Source: Patescibacteria group bacterium (lineage in GTDB: Bacteria; Patescibacteriota; Dojkabacteria; J137). Taken from it: 64,000 nt of DNA. The stretch covers positions 459,569-523,568 of the forward strand of contig BOLA01000001.1 in assembly GCA_016861265.1 (NCBI GenBank), in the 5' to 3' direction. Below are positions 5,081 to 16,897 of this stretch, in pieces. A program made the translations under genes and the position numbers. Position 1 is the stretch's first letter. The number at the start of each line of letters is the position of its first letter. The notes under the pieces were generated by a model. It saw only the letters and a list, made by a program, of their open reading frames with translations. It was not told the DNA's origin and did not search any database.

Positions 5081-5848
5081 TTATTTCTGTCTTTTAATCT
5101 TCCCCCACATTAAGGAGAACCCGGTAAATATAAAACCAACACCTAGTGCAATACTAAGCATAAAACTTGGATTATCTGAGATTGCAGTATTGGGAATTAC
5201 AGTCGGAGTTTCTACAACCGGAGTTGTAGGAGTAGTTGGAGTTGTCGGCGTGGTAGGCGTAGTGTCTGGCTGTGGGTTAGGATTTCCCGCAACTGCCTGA
5301 GCCACGTTAACAGTAACCTCATTTACATTAAACGCAATTGGCTGACCATTTAACCTAGTAAGCCTTGTTCCATCAACAGCCGTAGCAACCTGTACCTTAG
5401 TCTGTCCCTGCTTTTGTGCCTGAAATTCAATTTCAACTACTTCTTTATTTACTTGATAGTCTATACCTGAAGCGGCAGAAGCAGTTACTGAAATTCTTCC
5501 ATCTGCGGCAATATTATCAGTGGATGGATCCTCTACCGTTAGCAGAGTATCCATTATAGTTACCTGAGTTCCAGGACTTGCTGGATCTTTATCTACAACA
5601 CTTAGAAAATCTTTATTATAAGTAATAACAACTTTATATTCACTTACTTTCAAGTCTCCTGTTTTCACCTCTACTCTAACCTTAAACTTGTCACCTACTC
5701 TAACTGTAGGATTATCCCAATTTAAAAGAACACTTGATGTTGTAGTGGAACCTGTGCCCGCTGTAATTTCTCCAAAGGTAGGTTGAGAAATAGCGTCGCT
5801 TGCCTGCGCCTCTACTTTAGGTATTAAAAAATCAATTAAACCTGCCAT
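5081..5848 (-). CDS. Surface-anchored protein with a cohesin-like beta-sandwich domain, a Thr-Pro repeat linker and an LPNTA-type C-terminal sorting signal
   Basis: Short N-terminal leader ending AQA/S. The central region matches the cohesin pattern (VRVGDKFKVRVEVK...EYKVVITYNKDFLSVVDKDP). It carries a (TTP)4 linker, then VIPNTA followed by a hydrophobic helix and a KIKRQK tail, a sortase-substrate-like architecture. Confidence 0.4.
   Translation of the reverse strand: MAGLIDFLIPKVEAQASDAISQPTFGEITAGTGSTTTSSVLLNWDNPTVRVGDKFKVRVEVKTGDLKVSEYKVVITYNKDFLSVVDKDPASPGTQVTIMDTLLTVEDPSTDNIAADGRISVTASAASGIDYQVNKEVVEIEFQAQKQGQTKVQVATAVDGTRLTRLNGQPIAFNVNEVTVNVAQAVAGNPNPQPDTTPTTPTTPTTPTTPVVETPTVIPNTAISDNPSFMLSIALGVGFIFTGFSLMWGKIKRQK
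5220..5264. repeat. Imperfect 9-bp x5 tandem repeat encoding the TTPTTPTTPTTP linker
   Basis: Units ggagttgta, ggagtagtt, ggagttgtc, ggcgtggta and ggcgtagtg lie antisense to the coding strand inside CDS 5081..5848. Confidence 0.6.
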
Positions 5849-8135: not shown

Positions 8136-10367
8136 TTAATCAGTATTGATTTTATCCCAAGGGACTTCATTAACTAGATTAATAATAAAGTCTAGGCTTT
8201 TATTGTAGTTATCTACACTTATAATTCCATCTCTATAGGTAATTACCTTATCCCTATCCAGAATAAATTCCACTTTATATTCCTGTCCTTCGTGGTTAAT
8301 AATTACTGTATTCTTCTCTCCCCATGACTTACCTGGATGTTTTTGTATCAATAACTTATAGCTTCCAGTTGCGTTATAGTTAAGATTATCAGGTAAGTTA
8401 TAACTTACGTTCAGTTGCGATTCGGGAATAGGCGCTTCTGCGGAACCCCTTCGAGAATCAAATTGAATAATATTATCACTTACATACTTTTGCATTTGGG
8501 CATCTTGATATTCATCGGGGTAATAATAAAGGTAGCCCGAGTTATTATATCCATCGGAAACTACGTTAGTTGAACCAGTAGGCATAAAGTATCTTACCCA
8601 TGCTCGATAGGTAAATCTCCCACTCATATCATATTGATCCAAGTACGAATCCTGATATATTTCCGGTTGAACCCAGTGAGTGTATACGCTCTTAGAAATA
8701 TTGCCGTTGTCATCTATATTTACTGTTTGTGTTACGTCGTTTCTTAACCATCGATTAATTTTTAACGCGCAATTCTGAGCCTCGCTTAATTGAAAATAGT
8801 CACCTTCAAAAGTTTTTGCAGTCTCTCCGCTAAAGCCATATTTTTCTAAATATGCTTCTAAAGATGAGTCATTTGGAGCATAAATACCTATATCTTTAGC
8901 TTGTATAGACCCTACCATTGCATTAATTAGCCTTGCTAAGTCGGCAATCTTAAATTCAAATAACTTCTTTTTTGCAGCATTAGCAATGTCCTTAATAATA
9001 GATTTTCGTTCCTTACTTCCTCTATTCTCTACACTATCTGTTTGGGATTTTATTAAATCGTACAATTTGTCGGATGTTACCGTACCGAAACCTTCAACTT
9101 CAAGAGGATCTAATAAGTCTATTAAAGTTTCCGCAAAGTGGTTGTTTATAATTAGTACGTAATTGTAACTAGGAAAATCTGCAGGAGAATAGTAATTAGC
9201 AACATTATAATAATCAGCAAGCATTTGCATTGTGAGTTTAAGATCAGGGTAAATTCCTGCATCCTGCGCTCTCAAATAGTAAGCACCGCAACCTCTTTCC
9301 ATTAATACCAACTGACCGTAGATATTCCTATAACCCACATCAACACCTAAATCGTAAGATACATGAGTTTCTAAATTCCACATGTCTTCAAGATTTATAT
9401 CACCGATTTCACCATTACTCATTGTTAATGTTCCAAAGGCGCTTAACAACCCTCCCGAAGCTCTCATTTCAGTTTCATTTTGAAGAATTACTAAGTAAGT
9501 TGCAGGATCATTTGAACCTATAATTTCTGGCATATGACTTAAAAAATCCATTGTTTGTTTGGATATACTTGGGAATTTAGTAGAAAAATCATCCACTTCC
9601 TTAATTATTTCTGCATAATTAGTTCCGCCGATTTGTGGTACATAGTTAGGATCAATCTTTTTTACCTCGTTAAAGATGTCAATTACCTGAGGTTCAATCT
9701 TACTGTATAAGGCTAAATACTGAGGCAGCTCCTTCATTACTAAAGAAAACGCACTGTCTTCCTTTTTTTCTCCAGTTTCAGGGTCTAGCACTATGACTGT
9801 ATTAGGATCACTCTTCTCGGTTTTAAAACCCGTTATTTTTAGTAGATTCTTTAAGTCAGGTAAAGTTGAATCTAATAAATTAGAAGTCTTATCCAGAACG
9901 GTTCGCATTACTTGAAAATTATCGTAGTAGCCCTTGGTATATTCAAGATTCTCAAGAAATTCAAATCTATCAATTTCTGAATTTACATTATTTAAGTCTG
10001 TTTTTATATTGGCAAAATAAGTATCAATCTTACTTAAATCCTTATTGTCAAAATCAGCTAATAAAGAGGATGCATTGACTTGAATATCATCAACAGATTT
10101 CTTTATTCTGGTGTAAGGCATGTAAACATAGTTATATGCTAAAACTCCCAGGATTGCAGTTAGTACAAAAAGTATACTCAAAACGATCAATAATTTTCTA
10201 CCCCTCTTCCTCTTTGGTTTTGTTTCCGATTTAAAAGAAACGTATTTTGTTTTTGAATCCAGCGAAGATAGTTCATTACCTAAATTAGGACTGAACGAGT
10301 TAGTTAGAGTGGGATTAACTGTAGTTTCCTCTATTTTTTTATTTTTGGTGAATTTAAAAGTTTTCAT
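8136..10367 (-). CDS. Large membrane-anchored extracytoplasmic protein (possibly DUF4012-like)
   Basis: 743 aa with a basic N-terminus, a single TM helix (LLIVLSILFVLTAILGVLAY) and an ILQNETEMRASGGLLSAFG motif reminiscent of DUF4012 envelope proteins. Confidence 0.4.
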   Translation of the reverse strand: MKTFKFTKNKKIEETTVNPTLTNSFSPNLGNELSSLDSKTKYVSFKSETKPKRKRGRKLLIVLSILFVLTAILGVLAYNYVYMPYTRIKKSVDDIQVNASSLLADFDNKDLSKIDTYFANIKTDLNNVNSEIDRFEFLENLEYTKGYYDNFQVMRTVLDKTSNLLDSTLPDLKNLLKITGFKTEKSDPNTVIVLDPETGEKKEDSAFSLVMKELPQYLALYSKIEPQVIDIFNEVKKIDPNYVPQIGGTNYAEIIKEVDDFSTKFPSISKQTMDFLSHMPEIIGSNDPATYLVILQNETEMRASGGLLSAFGTLTMSNGEIGDINLEDMWNLETHVSYDLGVDVGYRNIYGQLVLMERGCGAYYLRAQDAGIYPDLKLTMQMLADYYNVANYYSPADFPSYNYVLIINNHFAETLIDLLDPLEVEGFGTVTSDKLYDLIKSQTDSVENRGSKERKSIIKDIANAAKKKLFEFKIADLARLINAMVGSIQAKDIGIYAPNDSSLEAYLEKYGFSGETAKTFEGDYFQLSEAQNCALKINRWLRNDVTQTVNIDDNGNISKSVYTHWVQPEIYQDSYLDQYDMSGRFTYRAWVRYFMPTGSTNVVSDGYNNSGYLYYYPDEYQDAQMQKYVSDNIIQFDSRRGSAEAPIPESQLNVSYNLPDNLNYNATGSYKLLIQKHPGKSWGEKNTVIINHEGQEYKVEFILDRDKVITYRDGIISVDNYNKSLDFIINLVNEVPWDKINTD

Positions 10368-10470
10368 GTCTGCAATAGTATATCAAAAGAAAAAGTAAAA
10401 GTTTTTATATAGCTTTAAATTGATACTTAATTAAAGCAACTGTATACTTACTAATATTAGTAATAATTAA

Positions 10471-12540
10471 ATGGACCAACCAAAAGAACCAAAAAAAATT
10501 CCCTTAGCTGGGGAAGTACCTGAAACAAAACTTCCACCAGTAGAGCCTGTCAATACTGCTGCTCCGACTGTAATTGATCTTAGTGAACCCAAAGATTATT
10601 CACACTTACCTATTGGTACACAAGCTAGCATTGAACTAGATAAGAAATCTATGCTTCCTGCGAAACCTGTTCCTCAAGATAATGGAACTAATAATATAGT
10701 ACCTAAAAGTGTACTAAAAAATGACTTCAGTAAAAAGTTTTTTAAGATTGGCTTAGGAATATTAGGAGCCTTTCTTGTTTGTTTTGTAGTTTTTCTAATT
10801 TTGTCCATAACCAACATTGACGCTAAATTCGTAAAGATCAATCTTAACGGAGAAATAACAGATGCAAATACGGGTAAGCCAGTTGAAAATGCAGCTATTT
10901 TTATTGGTGACAACGAGGTTGCAAAAACAAATCCGCAAGGTAGATATTCAGTAGATAATCTTGAGATAGGTGACGTACAGGTAACTGTAAAGGCAGACGG
11001 CTACGACGATACAACTGAAACAGTTAGAATAACTAAAGTTCTTTTGGACTACTCTACAAGAAAAGACTTTGCACTTAAATCCTCTATTACAGGGATATTA
11101 TCTGGGAAATTTATTCCAAATAGTTCTGACTATAAATTTACAAACGATAGATTACTCATTGGTGATAAACAGTATAAGATAAATGACGACGGCTCTTTTT
11201 TAATTAATGATATAAAGGTGGGCAAGCTGGACTTTAAATTCAACTCTATAAATTTTAAAGACATTACTCAAAGTATTGACCTTCAAGCGGGTACGAATAA
11301 AATTCCGGATATAACTTTGGTTCCAGGTGGTGACATTGTGGGTGAACTAAAAAGTTATGTAAAAGAGGATTTGGTTTTGAATACAAAATTTTATGTAGAG
11401 AATATTCTACAAGACCAAGTAAATATTACCGAGGATGGTAAATTTGCAGTAAAGGACTTAGACACTGAAAAGAAATACAAGATTAGAGTAACTGCAGATG
11501 GATATAAGACCAGGGATTACGAGATTAATATTCGACAAGGAGAAAACCAATTATTCAACTTCAAATTAGTAGAAAATGGTTCTGCAATTTATCCAATAAG
11601 AGATGGTACTAGTAGTTTTGACCCTATAAAACTCTACAGCTCAGATTTTGATGGTGAAAATAGGAAGCTAATTGCTGATGATACTGCAATAGATTTGTAT
11701 ACAAAATTTTTTAGCATTGAGGAGCAGAATTTATACTATCAGTCATTTAAAGATAGTACATTCCACCAAGCAAGTAATGGTAATACGCTAAAAATGCCTT
11801 ATAAGGTGGATATTGTAAACCCAACTCCTGACAGAATGACAATAAATACAAGCAATTTGAATCAACTAACAGCGAACTTTATTGCAAAGAAAATGCTAAA
11901 TCTTTACGTTAAGCAAGGTGCCATAAACCAACCAGGGCTACAAGTTATGGATATTGATGGCAATAATAGAAAGGATGTAAAACTCTTAACCAACACAAGT
12001 TTTAAATTTGAGAACTTAAGGATATCAAATAATGGAAAGTTTGTACTTTATAGTTATCAAAATAATAATCAGACTGAACTCTATTTGTATAATATTGAAT
12101 CGGAACAGACAAAGAATATTCTAACTAGTCAGAATATAACAGTTTACGATATATCAGAAGACGGGAACCTTGTGCTAATTAGCAGAAAGAATCCAAATAC
12201 AGATTTAATTGACCTGGCTATTGTGAATGTAGCATCAGATGATCTTAGAACTCTAAAAGAAAATATAAAAGGGTTAGGCTACCAATTTGTTAAGAATGAT
12301 ACTAACAAGATTATTTTCTTTGAAACAAGAGAGTCCAGATCAAATATTTATACATTTACCGTTGATAGAAGTCAGGAAGAAAAGATTTCCAGTCTAACGC
12401 CAGACTACACAATATACGGAATCTATCAGGAATCGAATTTGCTATTTTATCAAACTAATAGGGGTTTGTTGGTTTTAGATTTAAATAAGCCTAAAAACTT
12501 TAAGCTTGTGTCATCCGATGCCCATAATTACTTTAGATAA
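10471..12540 (+). CDS. Membrane-anchored protein with carboxypeptidase-regulatory-like domains and a TolB-like beta-propeller C-terminus
   Basis: Pro-rich N-terminus, one TM helix and repeated CarboxypepD_reg-like segments (GRYSVDNLEIGDVQVTVKADGYDD; DGKFAVKDLDTEKKYKIRVTADGYKT). The C-terminus has propeller-like repeats (NNGKFVLYSYQNNNQTELYLYN). Confidence 0.45.
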   Translation: MDQPKEPKKIPLAGEVPETKLPPVEPVNTAAPTVIDLSEPKDYSHLPIGTQASIELDKKSMLPAKPVPQDNGTNNIVPKSVLKNDFSKKFFKIGLGILGAFLVCFVVFLILSITNIDAKFVKINLNGEITDANTGKPVENAAIFIGDNEVAKTNPQGRYSVDNLEIGDVQVTVKADGYDDTTETVRITKVLLDYSTRKDFALKSSITGILSGKFIPNSSDYKFTNDRLLIGDKQYKINDDGSFLINDIKVGKLDFKFNSINFKDITQSIDLQAGTNKIPDITLVPGGDIVGELKSYVKEDLVLNTKFYVENILQDQVNITEDGKFAVKDLDTEKKYKIRVTADGYKTRDYEINIRQGENQLFNFKLVENGSAIYPIRDGTSSFDPIKLYSSDFDGENRKLIADDTAIDLYTKFFSIEEQNLYYQSFKDSTFHQASNGNTLKMPYKVDIVNPTPDRMTINTSNLNQLTANFIAKKMLNLYVKQGAINQPGLQVMDIDGNNRKDVKLLTNTSFKFENLRISNNGKFVLYSYQNNNQTELYLYNIESEQTKNILTSQNITVYDISEDGNLVLISRKNPNTDLIDLAIVNVASDDLRTLKENIKGLGYQFVKNDTNKIIFFETRESRSNIYTFTVDRSQEEKISSLTPDYTIYGIYQESNLLFYQTNRGLLVLDLNKPKNFKLVSSDAHNYFR

Positions 12541-12577: not shown

Positions 12578-13756
12578 ATGAACAGTATAAAGGATCTATT
12601 TCCAATATTTAAAAATATTCCGGACTTAATATTTTTAGACAATGCCTCAACAACTCAGAAACCTACCTTAGTATTAGATAAATTGACTGAGGTTTACACC
12701 CAATACAACTCCAATGTTCATAGAGGGCTATATCCTATTGCTGTTCGGGCCGATGAAGAATACGACAGAGCAAGAGAAAAAATTGCAAAATTTATAAACG
12801 CAGATAAAGACGAAATAGTCTTTACTTCGGGCACTACCGACGCTACAAATTTAATTGCTCAGTCATTGTTAAATAGTCAGATAATAAGTAACAATGCGAA
12901 TATTTTAACCACTGAACTTGAACATCATTCAAATTTTTTACCGTGGCAGAGAGTTTCAGGGAATAATTTAGAATTCGCAACTTTCAAAGAGAATCAATTG
13001 AATTTCGATGAAAACAAGAAATTTGATATTGTTGCCTACTCTATTATTAGTAATGTGACCGGTAAATTTACAGATATTAAGGATTTAAGAAAAAACAATT
13101 TAAAAGATGCAATTTTTATTGCGGATGCAGCACAGGCGATTGCACATATGCCAATTAATGTAAAAGAAATGGACATAGATTTTCTGGTATTTTCAGGACA
13201 CAAAATGTTTGGTCCAACAGGCGTCGGAATAATGTATGCAAAGCGAACCTTTCTAGAAAAAATGCAACCTTTCAAGGTTGGTGGAGGTATTGTAGACAAA
13301 GTATCAAGGGAGTCAACCTCCTGGACTCAATCTCCAGAAAAGTTTGAGGCTGGCACCCCACCAATTGCTGAAGCAATTGCTCTGGGTTCAGCTGTAGATT
13401 TTATCAACGAGATGGGATTTAATAAAATTTCACAGATTGAAAATGAACTTAAGGCCTACGCATTGCAAGAACTTTCTGGATTAGAAAAAATAAAGATATA
13501 CCACTCAGAAAATATACATTCCGGTGCGGTAATTAGTTTTACCCTTAAAGGAATTCACCCACACGATATTGCTCAATTTTTAGGAGATAAAAATATATGC
13601 GTTAGGGCAGGTCATCACTGCACGCAAATACTACATCGTGAGGTTTTTGAAATTCCTGCCTCGGTGCGTATATCTATGAGTATATATAATTCAAAGGAGG
13701 AAATTGATTCTTTAGTTTCAACCTTGAACGAATGCATTGCGTTCTACAGAATTTAA
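12578..13756 (+). CDS. sufS: Cysteine desulfurase (class V aminotransferase, SufS/CsdA type)
   Basis: FLDNASTTQKP N-terminus, the PLP-lysine region SGHKMFGPTGVGIMYAK and the active-site Cys loop RAGHHC. Confidence 0.85.
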   Translation: MNSIKDLFPIFKNIPDLIFLDNASTTQKPTLVLDKLTEVYTQYNSNVHRGLYPIAVRADEEYDRAREKIAKFINADKDEIVFTSGTTDATNLIAQSLLNSQIISNNANILTTELEHHSNFLPWQRVSGNNLEFATFKENQLNFDENKKFDIVAYSIISNVTGKFTDIKDLRKNNLKDAIFIADAAQAIAHMPINVKEMDIDFLVFSGHKMFGPTGVGIMYAKRTFLEKMQPFKVGGGIVDKVSRESTSWTQSPEKFEAGTPPIAEAIALGSAVDFINEMGFNKISQIENELKAYALQELSGLEKIKIYHSENIHSGAVISFTLKGIHPHDIAQFLGDKNICVRAGHHCTQILHREVFEIPASVRISMSIYNSKEEIDSLVSTLNECIAFYRI

Positions 13757-14637
13757 CTAGGGGTTAGTAATAACTTATTATTGCTGCCGATTCCATTGTC
13801 TAACGCCTGCTCTTGATAACCTTGCTTACTAACAATCATCTTTTTCTTCAGATATCTTCTCGAAACCCTAAACTGTCCATTTTTATCTGTAATAATATAT
13901 TTAGAATTATCTGAAAGTAGAATAATCGTACCTGCAAGGGGCTGATGGGTCTTAGAATTTTCCACAGTAATCCTCTTTGTAAGTAATAATTTACTTATTA
14001 GCAATAATATTGCCAATAAAAGTACTAAAACTAAAACAGTAAAAAGAACAATAGTTTCTATAGACATTGGCGTTTCCGACGAATCTTTTACCGGTAAAAC
14101 AATATTGTTAATTTGATTAGGCGTTAACGAGCATTCATAATTTGATGTTTGAATTGGCAAATTGTGTACACTTGTTAGAAGATCTAAACTTGTTGTTAGT
14201 TCAGCAATATTGCTATCGTATGTATTGTCTAAACCATCGAATTGTATTTGAAATACAGGATTCTTAGTATGTGCGACAAAGGGTATCTTAGCAAAAAGAT
14301 ACCTTCCATTTATAGAATCGAACCTAACGGCGGTAATTTTAATTTGATTTCCTTCGACCCTGTTATATACATATGACTCATAAGCATTTCCGGGTATTAT
14401 CTGAACGCCATCGACTAAAGGATCGGCGTCTAAAATAGTCACTTCTGTTAAATTGTATTTAATTATTAGATCGGCAGAATTAGAGTATTTGCCTTCGGTA
14501 TCTATAAAAATATCTAGTGTGTAAGAACAATCATCATCATTTAAACTGACAATATTATCTTGAATATAAGAGGCAGCATGAATTTTAACCATAGGGGCGA
14601 TTAAAACAAAAACTAATACCAGTAATAACCTATTCAT
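13753..14637 (-). CDS. Membrane protein with an N-terminal cohesin-like domain and a C-terminal CarboxypepD_reg-like segment
   Basis: Signal peptide, then a cohesin-like motif (DLIIKYNLTEVTILDADP), an internal TM helix (IVLFTVLVLVLLLAILLLI) and a C-terminal TDKNGQFRV motif. Its start overlaps the upstream gene by 4 bp, so they form an operon. Confidence 0.35.
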   Translation of the reverse strand: MNRLLLVLVFVLIAPMVKIHAASYIQDNIVSLNDDDCSYTLDIFIDTEGKYSNSADLIIKYNLTEVTILDADPLVDGVQIIPGNAYESYVYNRVEGNQIKITAVRFDSINGRYLFAKIPFVAHTKNPVFQIQFDGLDNTYDSNIAELTTSLDLLTSVHNLPIQTSNYECSLTPNQINNIVLPVKDSSETPMSIETIVLFTVLVLVLLLAILLLISKLLLTKRITVENSKTHQPLAGTIILLSDNSKYIITDKNGQFRVSRRYLKKKMIVSKQGYQEQALDNGIGSNNKLLLTPS

Positions 14638-15230
14638 AGATTCAAATCCCCACGCTTATGTAAATTATATATTTGATTACTCAAATCTAAGGAGTTTACT
14701 ATGCCATCCTTATTAAAATCGTATCTGGGTTCATTCGTATAGAGTCTGTTTATTACTTTGTTTACATCAAGTCCATTAATATAATTATGATTTATTGCAT
14801 CACCTGCGAGTAAGTATTCATTTTCATTTCTTGCAAGATTGAATTCAGTTGAATAGTTAAAAAAACCTTGAACATTTGAAAACAATTTGCCTAAATGACT
14901 TGCACTTTTTATATAAATTGAATAAATTCCTGGTGTTGTAGAAATTTCTCTAGAACACAAATCTATAGATGAGTAACCATTATTATTTGTCTCAAGATTA
15001 TCTATTCGAAAAATCTCTTGATATAACTGGTCATAAAATACAACCAAATATTTATCTGCAAAATTACCTTCTCTAGGCATTCTCTTCTCCGGTTTAATAA
15101 TCAAGGAAGCAGTACAGCTACTAACACTAGCACTAATGCTAATTTCTCCCTGAGATTGTGCATTAAGGGTGCTAAATGGAAGTAATAGTGAAGCTAAAAT
15201 TAGAATTGAAATCTTTTGAGTTAAATTCAT
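14634..15230 (-). CDS. Secreted protein with a C-terminal dockerin-like duplicated Ca-binding segment
   Basis: Signal peptide (LILASLLLPFSTLNAQS). The C-terminus carries two dockerin-like segments (DAINHNYINGLDVNKVINRL and DFNKDGIVNSLDLSNQIYNL) that fit the DxNxDGxVNxxD F-hand pattern. Confidence 0.4.
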   Translation of the reverse strand: MNLTQKISILILASLLLPFSTLNAQSQGEISISASVSSCTASLIIKPEKRMPREGNFADKYLVVFYDQLYQEIFRIDNLETNNNGYSSIDLCSREISTTPGIYSIYIKSASHLGKLFSNVQGFFNYSTEFNLARNENEYLLAGDAINHNYINGLDVNKVINRLYTNEPRYDFNKDGIVNSLDLSNQIYNLHKRGDLNL

Positions 15231-15232
15231 TT

Positions 15233-16534
15233 TTAGAACTCACTCAAGTGCCAGTAACCAGTCTTTAAACCTGAGCAATCTCTATTCTGACATAAAATTA
15301 TGTATTGTGCTCCATATCCATCATCCCAGAATTTATGCACATAGCCATCGTGAGCTGCAAATATTGGTGCATTCCAAGGTGATCCTATAATATCAATTCC
15401 CGTATGAAAATCGCAGTAGTTCGAATCTCCCCACCAGAAGCATCTGTTTCCAAAACCACTTGTAAAGGTAATGTTCCCTTGCAAAGGTGCATCAAGATAG
15501 CCTCCTCCACAACCATCTACAATACCATCTTTCAAATATCCACATGGGTTCTGTAATTGGTTGTTTATGTATACCATAAAGTGCAAATGTGCACCTGTAC
15601 ATAACCCCGTACAACCTTGTTTACCCATATATGTTCCAGCTACCACATATTGACCATCGTCGGCGGGAACATAGCTGTTAAAGATCTGCTGTTGCACAAG
15701 ACTTGCCTGTGCTTCAAGCTTGGCTTGATCATCATTAAATTGGAACAATCTTGATTGATTACTATTGTTCTGCGCTTGAAGAGCATTTAATTCTTTCTGA
15801 TACGCAGTAATTCTCACATCTGCTTCTTCTCTCTTTTTTGCTAAGTCAGTCTTTTTGACATCAACAATTTCCTTACTCTTATTAACTTCTATCAATTTAT
15901 TGTTTAGCTCTAACTTTTTGTCTTGAAGTTGTTGTTTTAATTCCGCAAGCTCAACCATAACGTCGTTAGTATCCGATTGAATTAGCTCCTTATATTGAGA
16001 TGTTTTAAAGAAAGTATTTATATTCGTTAGATTGAAAACTGTACTAGCATCGTCAGTTGACCTATAAAGTCTAAAATTAAAGTAGTTATCTCTAATTCTT
16101 TCTGCCGATTCTTCTTCCAGACCAGTTATGGTATTTTCTGTCTTTGTAATGTCGGCTTTTTGTTTGTCTATATCTTTATTAAGACTTGCTATTTGAAGTT
16201 CAAGTTGCTTTATTTCTAGGTCTAACTCTTCAATTTGTTTATTGTATAAATCTGCCTCTCCATATAGTCTTGAGAGTTCGGAGCTATAACCATTTATGAC
16301 ATATGCATTTTGGTCTAATTGTGATTGAAGACCCTCTTTCTCTCTCTTAACTTCATCAATCTGCCTATTAATATCATCCAATTGTTCTTGCAATGACTGA
16401 CCCACGCTTACTCCTGGTGCTACATATTGAATTCTTATATTATTCAGAAATGGTACCGAGGTATTGGCAATTACTAATAGAGCTAAGTTAAAGACAACGA
16501 AAGTTATTGTTACTATGTTTTTTAGTTTTTTCAT
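15233..16534 (-). CDS. Coiled-coil (EnvC-like) M23/LytM-family peptidase with a circularly permuted catalytic domain
   Basis: N-terminal TM helix, about 250 aa of coiled coil, then GTYMGKQGCTGLCTGAHLHFMVY...NP, which normally forms the C-terminal half of M23. This is followed by ITFTSGFGNR...HTGIDII...AAHDGYV...GYGAQYIIL...GYWHLSEF, which normally forms the N-terminal half. Confidence 0.7.
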   Translation of the reverse strand: MKKLKNIVTITFVVFNLALLVIANTSVPFLNNIRIQYVAPGVSVGQSLQEQLDDINRQIDEVKREKEGLQSQLDQNAYVINGYSSELSRLYGEADLYNKQIEELDLEIKQLELQIASLNKDIDKQKADITKTENTITGLEEESAERIRDNYFNFRLYRSTDDASTVFNLTNINTFFKTSQYKELIQSDTNDVMVELAELKQQLQDKKLELNNKLIEVNKSKEIVDVKKTDLAKKREEADVRITAYQKELNALQAQNNSNQSRLFQFNDDQAKLEAQASLVQQQIFNSYVPADDGQYVVAGTYMGKQGCTGLCTGAHLHFMVYINNQLQNPCGYLKDGIVDGCGGGYLDAPLQGNITFTSGFGNRCFWWGDSNYCDFHTGIDIIGSPWNAPIFAAHDGYVHKFWDDGYGAQYIILCQNRDCSGLKTGYWHLSEF

Positions 16535-16543
16535 TCTCTACTA

Positions 16544-16897
16544 TTGTATAGTCAATTAAATATTTTGTCCAAAATTACAAATAATCCGATTGACGAAGAT
16601 ACCCTATGGGGGTATTATATTTTTATGGAGAAGATAGATTGTAAAAAAGTCAGTGAAGAGACTACAAAAAATTTAAACCGTGTAAAAGGACAAATCCATG
16701 GAATTGAGAAAATGATTTCAGAGAACCGAGACTCAATAGAGATTGTCACGCAAATTCAGGCAGTTAGAGCTGCCCTCTCTTCCATTGCAATAAACATGTT
16801 AAAGGAAGACTGCAACGAATGTTTTAATAAAAAATCAGAAGCAGATAAAAAGAAACAGTTCGAGGATTTGGTAGTGAAATTTTTTAAAATAAGTTAG
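16544..16897 (+). CDS. CsoR/RcnR/FrmR-family metal- or stress-sensing transcriptional repressor
   Basis: LNRVKGQIHGIEKMISENRDSIEIVTQIQAVRAALSSIAINMLKEDCNECF matches the DUF156 helix bundle. The true start may be the internal Met (MEKIDC). Confidence 0.65.
   Translation: MYSQLNILSKITNNPIDEDTLWGYYIFMEKIDCKKVSEETTKNLNRVKGQIHGIEKMISENRDSIEIVTQIQAVRAALSSIAINMLKEDCNECFNKKSEADKKKQFEDLVVKFFKIS

Follow-up and report, generated by a model that had tools for sequence, protein, structure and literature searches.

Cohesin-dockerin pairs are among the strongest protein-protein locks and have been studied almost only in plant-fibre-degrading bacteria, which raises the question of what such a pair would do in Patescibacteria, which live attached to other cells and most of whose envelope proteins are unexplained. 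The question is posed here by three minus-strand genes of a 64-kb stretch of Patescibacteria DNA (the window, by which we mean the whole stretch analysed), encoding a peptidoglycan endopeptidase of the M23 family (gene 1), a secreted protein consisting of an X module and a dockerin (gene 2), and a membrane-anchored cohesin (gene 3), with the coordinates of all features collected in Table 1. We consider it fairly probable that the products of genes 2 and 3 are cognate partners, forming a type-II-like cohesin/X-dockerin pair outside any cellulosome, and that Patescibacteria conserve the two genes as a module.

The case for a dockerin in the gene 2 protein comes from its family. Searching solved structures with the single sequence returned one weak dockerin match, and the Pfam Dockerin_1 profile (PF00404) fell slightly short of its 22.9-bit cut-off, with a score of 20.7 bits (E 4.8e-4); the same profile matched 11/11 close homologues and 22/28 of the wider homologues from other loci at E<=0.01, with two of ten wider homologues checked exceeding the cut-off (29.1 and 23.5 bits). 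The profile of the close family matched a coherent list of solved dockerins (E 2e-4 to 8e-3 for the family profiles overall), while the best solved matches of the wider profile (A8) were the type II X-dockerin dyads 4wi0_B (E 2.3e-4), 4u3s_B, 5k39_B and 2b59_B, in that order, and the alignments to 4wi0_B, 4u3s_B and 2b59_B covered both the X module and the dockerin (E 2.3e-4 to 1.4e-3). Foldseek gave the same picture, as its top five matches to the gene 2 model were all X-dockerin chains, aligned over about 155/156 residues. The immunoglobulin-like X module of gene 2 is homologous to known X modules and lies directly N-terminal to the dockerin, the arrangement that defines a type II X-dockerin dyad. 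The dockerin assignment made by an earlier, sequence-only reading of this DNA is therefore supported by the Dockerin_1 evidence in the family and by the dyad matches.

An F-hand repeat consists of a 12-residue calcium loop, with Asp or Asn at positions 1, 3, 5, 9 and 12, followed by a helix. Two such segments had been proposed in gene 2, and both peptides are present, at residues 144-163 (DAINHNYINGLDVNKVINRL) and 171-190 (DFNKDGIVNSLDLSNQIYNL) of the protein; the second repeat (DFNKDGIVNSLD) has a canonical calcium loop, but the proposal stands only in part for the first, which lacks acidic residues at positions 3 and 5. In the wider gene 2 family the first loop is 2 residues longer than the canonical 12, and the two helices that should follow the loops are predicted, at a pLDDT (predicted local distance difference test) below 50. 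The X module has a cysteine pair that 20 sequences keep and 8 lack as a whole, neither cysteine ever occurring singly, and this co-variation suggests a disulfide and an extracytoplasmic location. Besides the dockerin, the gene 2 protein contains the X module only, with neither a cargo domain nor an anchor.

In the AlphaFold2 model of gene 3 (pLDDT 78.6) the signal peptide leads into a nine-strand sandwich, which is followed by a linker of low model quality, a transmembrane (TM) helix and a small C-terminal beta domain. All nine strands fall within residues 23-158, where the pLDDT is mostly 72-93, and this part includes the peptide DLIIKYNLTEVTILDADP (residues 56-73) in which a cohesin-like strand pattern had originally been seen. 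About half of the top 50 Foldseek matches in the PDB were cohesins, including 2xdh, 2y3n_A, 3ghp and 6kgd_A, with the non-cellulosomal cohesin of A. fulgidus (2xdh) being the best single-domain match to the N-domain (TM-score 0.59), and the C-domain matched SusC NTE and carboxypeptidase D transthyretin-like domains. The top Foldseek matches to gene 3, to BcpA-type pilins, were disregarded as two-domain alignments with a root-mean-square deviation of about 25 Å. Searching solved structures with the gene 3 sequence alone returned noise only.

Profile evidence for gene 3 comes from its homologues. Pfam Cohesin matched 19/29 trimmed domains homologous to that of gene 3 (at E<=1e-23), with a best E-value of 6e-8, and no other family matched them consistently. 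An exhaustive profile search with the gene 3 N-domain alone found 624 representative proteins (clusters at 50% identity) at E<=1e-3, 259 of them at E<=1e-10, and the family members P0037, P0042 and P0045 scored 46, 27 and 43 bits with Pfam Cohesin (cut-off 24.1), with the match lying within the profile-matched region in P0037 and P0042. Since homologous domains match Pfam Cohesin and the fold agrees, the N-domain of gene 3 is best taken as a divergent true cohesin, an assignment that is transitive through these relatives and the fold, with no direct match. The absence of cohesin and dockerin profile matches and of a beta-sandwich had been named beforehand as fatal to the domain calls; the matches and the sandwich were found, and the description of gene 3 as a membrane protein with a cohesin-like exported domain holds good.

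Most of the 624 family proteins are 500-800 aa long with the cohesin domain at the N-terminus, and the relatives share one architecture: a signal peptide and the cohesin come first, Big_5 follows in some of them, and next are a hydrophobic segment and CarboxypepD_reg. Gene 3 is a short version of it. The only name found for members of the family is 'hypothetical protein', and those with a named source are Patescibacteria or Saccharibacteria; the cohesin domain family is thus large and previously unannotated. In the longer relatives (P0039-P0074) the CarboxypepD_reg-like domain lies between hydrophobic segments. The most conserved stretch of the family is NT[YL]DSNIA[ED] followed by TSxDLLTSV, represented in gene 3 by NTYDSNIAE (residues 138-146, 14200..14226, minus strand), and it falls within the linker, in the only part of the model with a pLDDT below 50 (136-153); this stretch may become ordered only upon binding of a partner.

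The gene neighbourhoods connect the two proteins. Scanning metagenomes with a 10-sequence alignment yielded 26 loci with a gene 3-type cohesin, and a gene for an X module plus dockerin was located immediately upstream on the same strand in 24/26; one of the exceptions lies at a contig edge, giving 24/25 testable loci. Of five further loci, four (L012, L013, L014 and L015) have such a gene directly before that of the cohesin, and the fifth, L010, has a weak dockerin gene between two cohesin genes. In L013, L014 and L015 the pair is found in unrelated flanking contexts, and its one-to-one composition is kept down to about 30% identity. Recurrence in 24/26 independent metagenomic loci means that the pairing of these genes is not chance. 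Two scans of genome collections were less productive, with nothing returned by the first and only two metagenome-assembled genomes of Saccharibacteria by the second, and literature searches found no description of an X-dockerin/cohesin gene pair in Patescibacteria.

The sequence-only reading had taken all three genes as the unit, and in this respect it was not borne out. A permuted M23 gene adjoins the pair only in L004, L006 and L012, where the three genes are kept along with the entire neighbourhood of the window; it is absent from all 26 metagenomic loci and from L010, L013, L014 and L015, and the M23 gene was therefore rejected as a member of the module. What is conserved is the gene pair of X-dockerin and cohesin, not the three-gene operon. 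Another peptidoglycan-related gene recurs beside the pair, as a WxLIP_PGBD (DUF916)-type peptidoglycan-binding protein is encoded next to it in seven loci (Table 1); when five members were scanned with Pfam, four showed the WxLIP_PGBD domain, those of L023, L032 and L033 scoring above the cut-off and that of L036 below it. No DUF916 gene is present in the window. Expanded versions of the pair were also found (L013:5619-6920 with L013:7001-11569, and L010:149-3913), comprising a 433-aa protein with fn3, X module and dockerin and, besides it, cohesin proteins of 1254-1522 aa that contain two cohesin domains and Big_5, which indicates that the module can grow toward a small scaffoldin.

Pfam Peptidase_M23 matched the gene 1 product in two stretches (E 8e-12), and the N-terminal 285 residues gave SMC-, PcsB- and other coiled-coil-type matches, with weak matches to PcsB, SMC and MepM. 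Aligned to TagE (5j1l), the half with the HLH motif (query 291-337) corresponds to TagE 121-167 and the half with the HxxxD motif (375-431) to TagE 63-117, so that the two halves occur in swapped order; the motifs are HLH at 316-318, HTGID at 377-381 and WHLS at 428-431, with the protein ending right after WHLSEF. The alignment thus confirms the permutation of the M23 protein noted earlier, and shows it to be circular, the HLH half preceding the HxxxD half. All motifs and catalytic residues are kept, although not in the canonical M23 order, and by homology the protein is an M23 member of non-canonical topology. Since gene 1 is colinear with its orthologues in L004, L006 and L012, the permutation is an inherited one. 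With its N-terminal anchor, long coiled coil and C-terminal hydrolase domain with M23 catalytic residues, gene 1 resembles coiled-coil hydrolases of peptidoglycan and their activators, such as EnvC, PcsB, CwlO and ShyA/MepM-type M23 enzymes, but differs from these in the permutation of the M23 domain and in having no adjoining FtsEX gene.

If genes 2 and 3 encode interacting partners, a simple arrangement at the cell surface can be proposed. Both proteins would be exported via Sec signal peptides, and the signal-peptide-like N-termini of the pair support an extracytoplasmic location. A single TM helix would keep the cohesin in the cytoplasmic membrane, with the small CarboxypepD_reg-like domain inside the cell, a topology that we infer from the positive-inside rule alone. 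Calcium-dependent binding between its dockerin and the cohesin could then keep the X-dockerin protein at the surface; as this protein has neither an anchor nor cargo, docking would bring no more than the X module to the surface. The X module, with its PEKRxP and SHL motifs and probable disulfide, would be exposed as the working surface of the heterodimer, most likely contacting peptidoglycan or another component of the wall or of a host surface. The wall is the presumed working compartment because the recurrent neighbours, M23 and WxLIP_PGBD proteins, cut or bind peptidoglycan; in the lineage of the window the complex would probably share this compartment with the peptidoglycan-cutting M23 enzyme.

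Several observations weigh against a cognate cohesin/X-dockerin pair. The window's own gene 2 and gene 3 sequences fall below the Pfam cut-offs for both domains: Pfam Cohesin (PF00963) matched neither gene 3 nor its 10 close relatives, and gene 3 domain profiles, even with 29 sequences, found the solved cohesin 3ul4_A only at insignificant E-values of 0.19 to 0.4. The gene 2 model is of moderate quality, with an overall pLDDT of 60.7; the sandwich reaches about 80, whereas the dockerin stays below 50. The first repeat of gene 2 (DAINHNYINGLD) keeps only positions 1, 9 and 12 of the calcium loop, with Ile and His at positions 3 and 5 instead of acidic residues. A dockerin protein devoid of cargo has no precedent from which to derive a function, and a cytoplasmic CarboxypepD_reg-like domain would be odd, as this fold is normally extracytoplasmic. 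Finally, the linkage to M23 in the lineage of the window is weak functional evidence, the whole neighbourhood being syntenic.

A cellulosome was rejected as an explanation, as there is no enzyme cargo, carbohydrate-binding module (CBM) or scaffoldin and each cohesin protein here has one cohesin domain. Apart from the orphan cohesin described below, family-specific hidden Markov models (HMMs) detected no further dockerins or cohesins in the window, and neither glycoside hydrolases nor CBMs nor a scaffoldin with several cohesins were detected. The original suggestion of a docking system used for something other than cellulolysis agrees with these findings, but its proposed use in surface-protein assembly fits less well, there being no obvious cargo to assemble.

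The window does encode a second cohesin, which offers a different partner for gene 2. This orphan cohesin had been noted previously as a cohesin-like surface protein with a sortase-type anchor, and the evidence supports a cohesin with a sortase-like signal. Its family profile matched type II cohesins over the whole domain (2y3n_A, E 0.006; 1tyj, E 0.013), Pfam Cohesin matched two of 14 family members (best 3.7e-5), and the domain is distantly related to that of gene 3 (hhalign E 1.8e-4, local HMM E 0.003). The protein has a Pro/Thr-rich stalk, and its C-terminus of IP[ND]T[AG], hydrophobic stretch and K/R tail is conserved across the 14 sequences. In all three contexts the gene lies between a GT2 gene and infA, with infA and the ribosomal protein genes directly downstream of it, and none of the three contains a dockerin gene nearby.

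The X-dockerin may dock mainly on this cohesin, which sortase would attach covalently to the wall. The membrane cohesin would then bind it secondarily, serve as an intermediate in assembly or not be its partner, and the X-dockerin would be passed from membrane to wall. A second true cohesin with an IPNT[AG] sorting signal and without a dockerin gene of its own nearby speaks for this, but we regard the scheme as unlikely, since the X-dockerin gene adjoins the membrane-cohesin family in 24/25 testable loci. Furthermore, the N-terminus of the orphan cohesin (MAGLIDFLIPKVEAQA; family MAxLIEFLIPKVxAQ) spans about 15 residues without a basic n-region and is unlike a normal signal peptide, with only 9 codons of open frame upstream of the start, and no sortase gene was present in the part of the window scanned.

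Alternatively, the three genes may form a trans-envelope control unit for a cell-division hydrolase, in which the M23 protein is comparable to EnvC, PcsB or CwlO and is positioned or gated by the cohesin/X-dockerin pair with its predicted cytoplasmic domain, as is done by FtsEX elsewhere. The coiled-coil-plus-hydrolase architecture of gene 1, the tight packing of the operon, the location of FtsW 3.4 kb away in the window and of mraZ next to the pair in L015 would all suit such a role, and in another Saccharibacterium an FtsX gene adjoins that of a coiled-coil CHAP protein (supplement of PMC10633639). We nevertheless consider it distinctly improbable, as no M23 gene adjoins the pair in any of the 26 metagenomic loci or in L010, L013, L014 and L015, the M23 protein itself has neither a cohesin nor a dockerin, and the operon contains no ATPase or FtsX-like partner. 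Slightly less probable still is that the folds are cohesin- and dockerin-like without binding each other. The dockerin would then act only as a helical cap stabilised by calcium or as a binder of glycans or ions, the cohesin would be a generic surface beta-sandwich, and their adjacency would reflect co-expression only. In favour of this, the two domains have diverged and for the most part stay under the Pfam cut-offs, the first of the calcium loops has degenerated, and non-cellulosomal cohesins and dockerins often have unknown partners. Interacting partners, however, are expected to show what is seen here, a one-to-one gene pair that persists in very different settings and down to about 30% identity, and the closest solved relatives, an X-dockerin and a type II cohesin, are each other's partners.

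Cognate docking of gene 2 on gene 3 hence remains our preferred interpretation, and it can be extended further, albeit with little confidence. The pair could be a Patescibacteria-wide, force-resisting envelope or attachment device that links the membrane of the episymbiont to its own wall or to the host surface, with the permuted M23 enzyme opening host or self peptidoglycan at the contact site in the lineage of the window, which would make it a case of cellulosome-type docking re-used for episymbiosis; we think this extension improbable as it stands.

The layout of the operon is as first described, with three minus-strand genes separated by a 2-bp gap and a 4-bp overlap: the DNA reads TAA-aa-ATG at the junction of genes 1 and 2 and has an ATGA stop/start overlap at that of genes 2 and 3, with the latter overlap also found in L004 and L006. 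All peptides quoted in the sequence-only reading were likewise recovered from the gene 2 and gene 3 proteins. A candidate operon promoter just upstream of the M23 start was identified by consensus match only, and a scan of the cluster detected no terminator-like site between the three genes. We propose that in the lineage of the window the X-dockerin/cohesin pair is translationally coupled, and co-transcribed with the M23 gene.

Table 1. Positions of the features discussed, given in window coordinates unless preceded by a locus identifier.
Feature	Position	Strand	Basis
Gene 1, M23 peptidoglycan endopeptidase, 433 aa	15233..16534	-	Open reading frame (ORF) list, Pfam, alignment to TagE
Gene 1, N-terminal membrane anchor or signal	16445..16534	-	
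Gene 1, coiled coil	about 15680..16402	-	SMC/PcsB-like coiled-coil matches
Gene 1, circularly permuted M23/LytM domain	15236..15679	-	Alignment to TagE 5j1l
Gene 2, secreted X-dockerin, 198 aa	14634..15230	-	ORF list, Pfam, family profiles, Foldseek
Gene 2, signal peptide	15159..15230	-	
Gene 2, X-module beta-sandwich with invariant PEKRxP and SHL motifs, Cys39/Cys92	14820..15149	-	
Gene 2, dockerin, two F-hand repeats	14637..14810	-	
Gene 3, membrane-anchored cohesin, 294 aa	13753..14637	-	ORF list, AlphaFold2 model, Foldseek, Pfam hits in homologues
Gene 3, signal peptide	14575..14637	-	
Gene 3, divergent cohesin domain	14158..14574	-	
Gene 3, TM helix, residues 193-219	13981..14061	-	
Gene 3, C-terminal CarboxypepD_reg/transthyretin-like domain	13756..13980	-	CarbopepD_reg_2, E 6.6e-5
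Orphan cohesin protein, 255 aa	5081..5848	-	ORF and family profile
Orphan cohesin, cohesin domain	about 5351..5740	-	
Orphan cohesin, sorting signal (IPNTA, hydrophobic segment, KIKRQK)	5084..5197	-	
Candidate promoter, TGGACA-17-TACAAT, just upstream of the M23 start	16543..16571	-	Consensus scan, 10/12 matches
DUF916-type gene	L023:2882-4120		
DUF916-type gene	L032:945-2195		
DUF916-type gene	L033:2918-4156		
DUF916-type gene	L036:3318-4280		
DUF916-type gene	L029:763-1767		
DUF916-type gene	L013:4490-5419		
DUF916-type gene	L022:7230-8495		

Downstream of the operon, the 3′ end of gene 3 overlaps by 4 bp (13753..13756) with that of a convergent gene for a class V aminotransferase (SufS-like, 12578..13756), and because of this overlap there is no room for a terminator between the two. 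Beyond the aminotransferase gene, 8136..12540 encodes two large envelope proteins that have the same position in relatives, one being a membrane protein of 689 aa with CarboxypepD_reg repeats and a Tricorn_N-like region, the other a DUF4012 protein of 743 aa. On the other side, a perfect palindrome (ATACCC-TATG-GGGGTAT, 16599..16615) that occurs once in the window lies in the intergenic region between the M23 operon and a divergent gene (16544/16626..16897), about 30 bp beyond the putative M23 promoter and flanked on the plus strand by a TTGACG -35 and a TATTAT -10 sequence. Downstream of it are genes for a CsoR-type (Trns_repr_metal) repressor, thioredoxin and thioredoxin reductase; the palindrome resembles CsoR operators, and the repressor is therefore probably autoregulated. 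An Rfam search of the window found no RNA family.

Genes 2 and 3 represent a cohesin-dockerin system in minimal form, in which adjoining genes encode a single secreted X-dockerin and a single membrane cohesin. This small pair can readily be expressed and put to a direct test. Should the two bind, about 600 protein clusters would be annotated and a handle gained on the envelope or attachment biology of Patescibacteria; if they do not, cohesin and dockerin folds would have been reused for something else. A dockerin-domain protein of 927 aa, SEML1_0315, was reported to be essential in the cultured Saccharibacterium Southlakia epibionticum (PMC10633639), but is a different gene from gene 2, and the transposon sequencing (Tn-seq) tables of that organism contain no cohesin or M23 annotation from which orthologues of the pair could be located.

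Three known systems can be compared with the pair. The WxL/Csc clusters of Lactobacillales, in which DUF916 is the WxLIP_PGBD domain, are likewise small gene clusters, whose products, some secreted and others anchored in membrane or wall, are presumed to assemble on peptidoglycan as a surface complex, and the likeness is strengthened by the WxLIP_PGBD protein next to the pair in seven loci; no WxL domain was found here, however, and docking would instead go via a cohesin and a dockerin. Non-cellulosomal cohesins and dockerins are known, and those of A. fulgidus (cohesin 2XDH) and of the C. perfringens glycosidases (modules 2JH2, 2VO8 and 2W1N) also use these folds outside plant cell-wall degradation, but they sit on enzymes or large multidomain proteins, whereas neither partner is catalytic here and the two form a conserved operon module of Patescibacteria. 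The third comparison is with the type II cohesin/X-dockerin complexes of cellulosomes, such as the CipA X-dockerin with the SdbA cohesin of C. thermocellum (PDB 2B59) and the ScaA X-dockerin with the ScaB cohesin Coh3 of A. cellulolyticus (4U3S/4WI0). Compared with these, the X-dockerin of gene 2 is a free-standing secreted protein of 198 aa that bears neither a scaffoldin nor enzymes nor a CBM, its presumed cohesin partner is anchored by a TM helix and a CarboxypepD_reg-like domain and not by SLH repeats, and the partners are encoded as a one-to-one gene pair in a non-cellulolytic host. As in the type II systems, on the other hand, an X beta-sandwich is fused directly to the dockerin and single cohesin domains are presented on a cell-anchored protein, and it is type II X-dockerin and cohesin structures that are the best sequence and fold matches of both partners.

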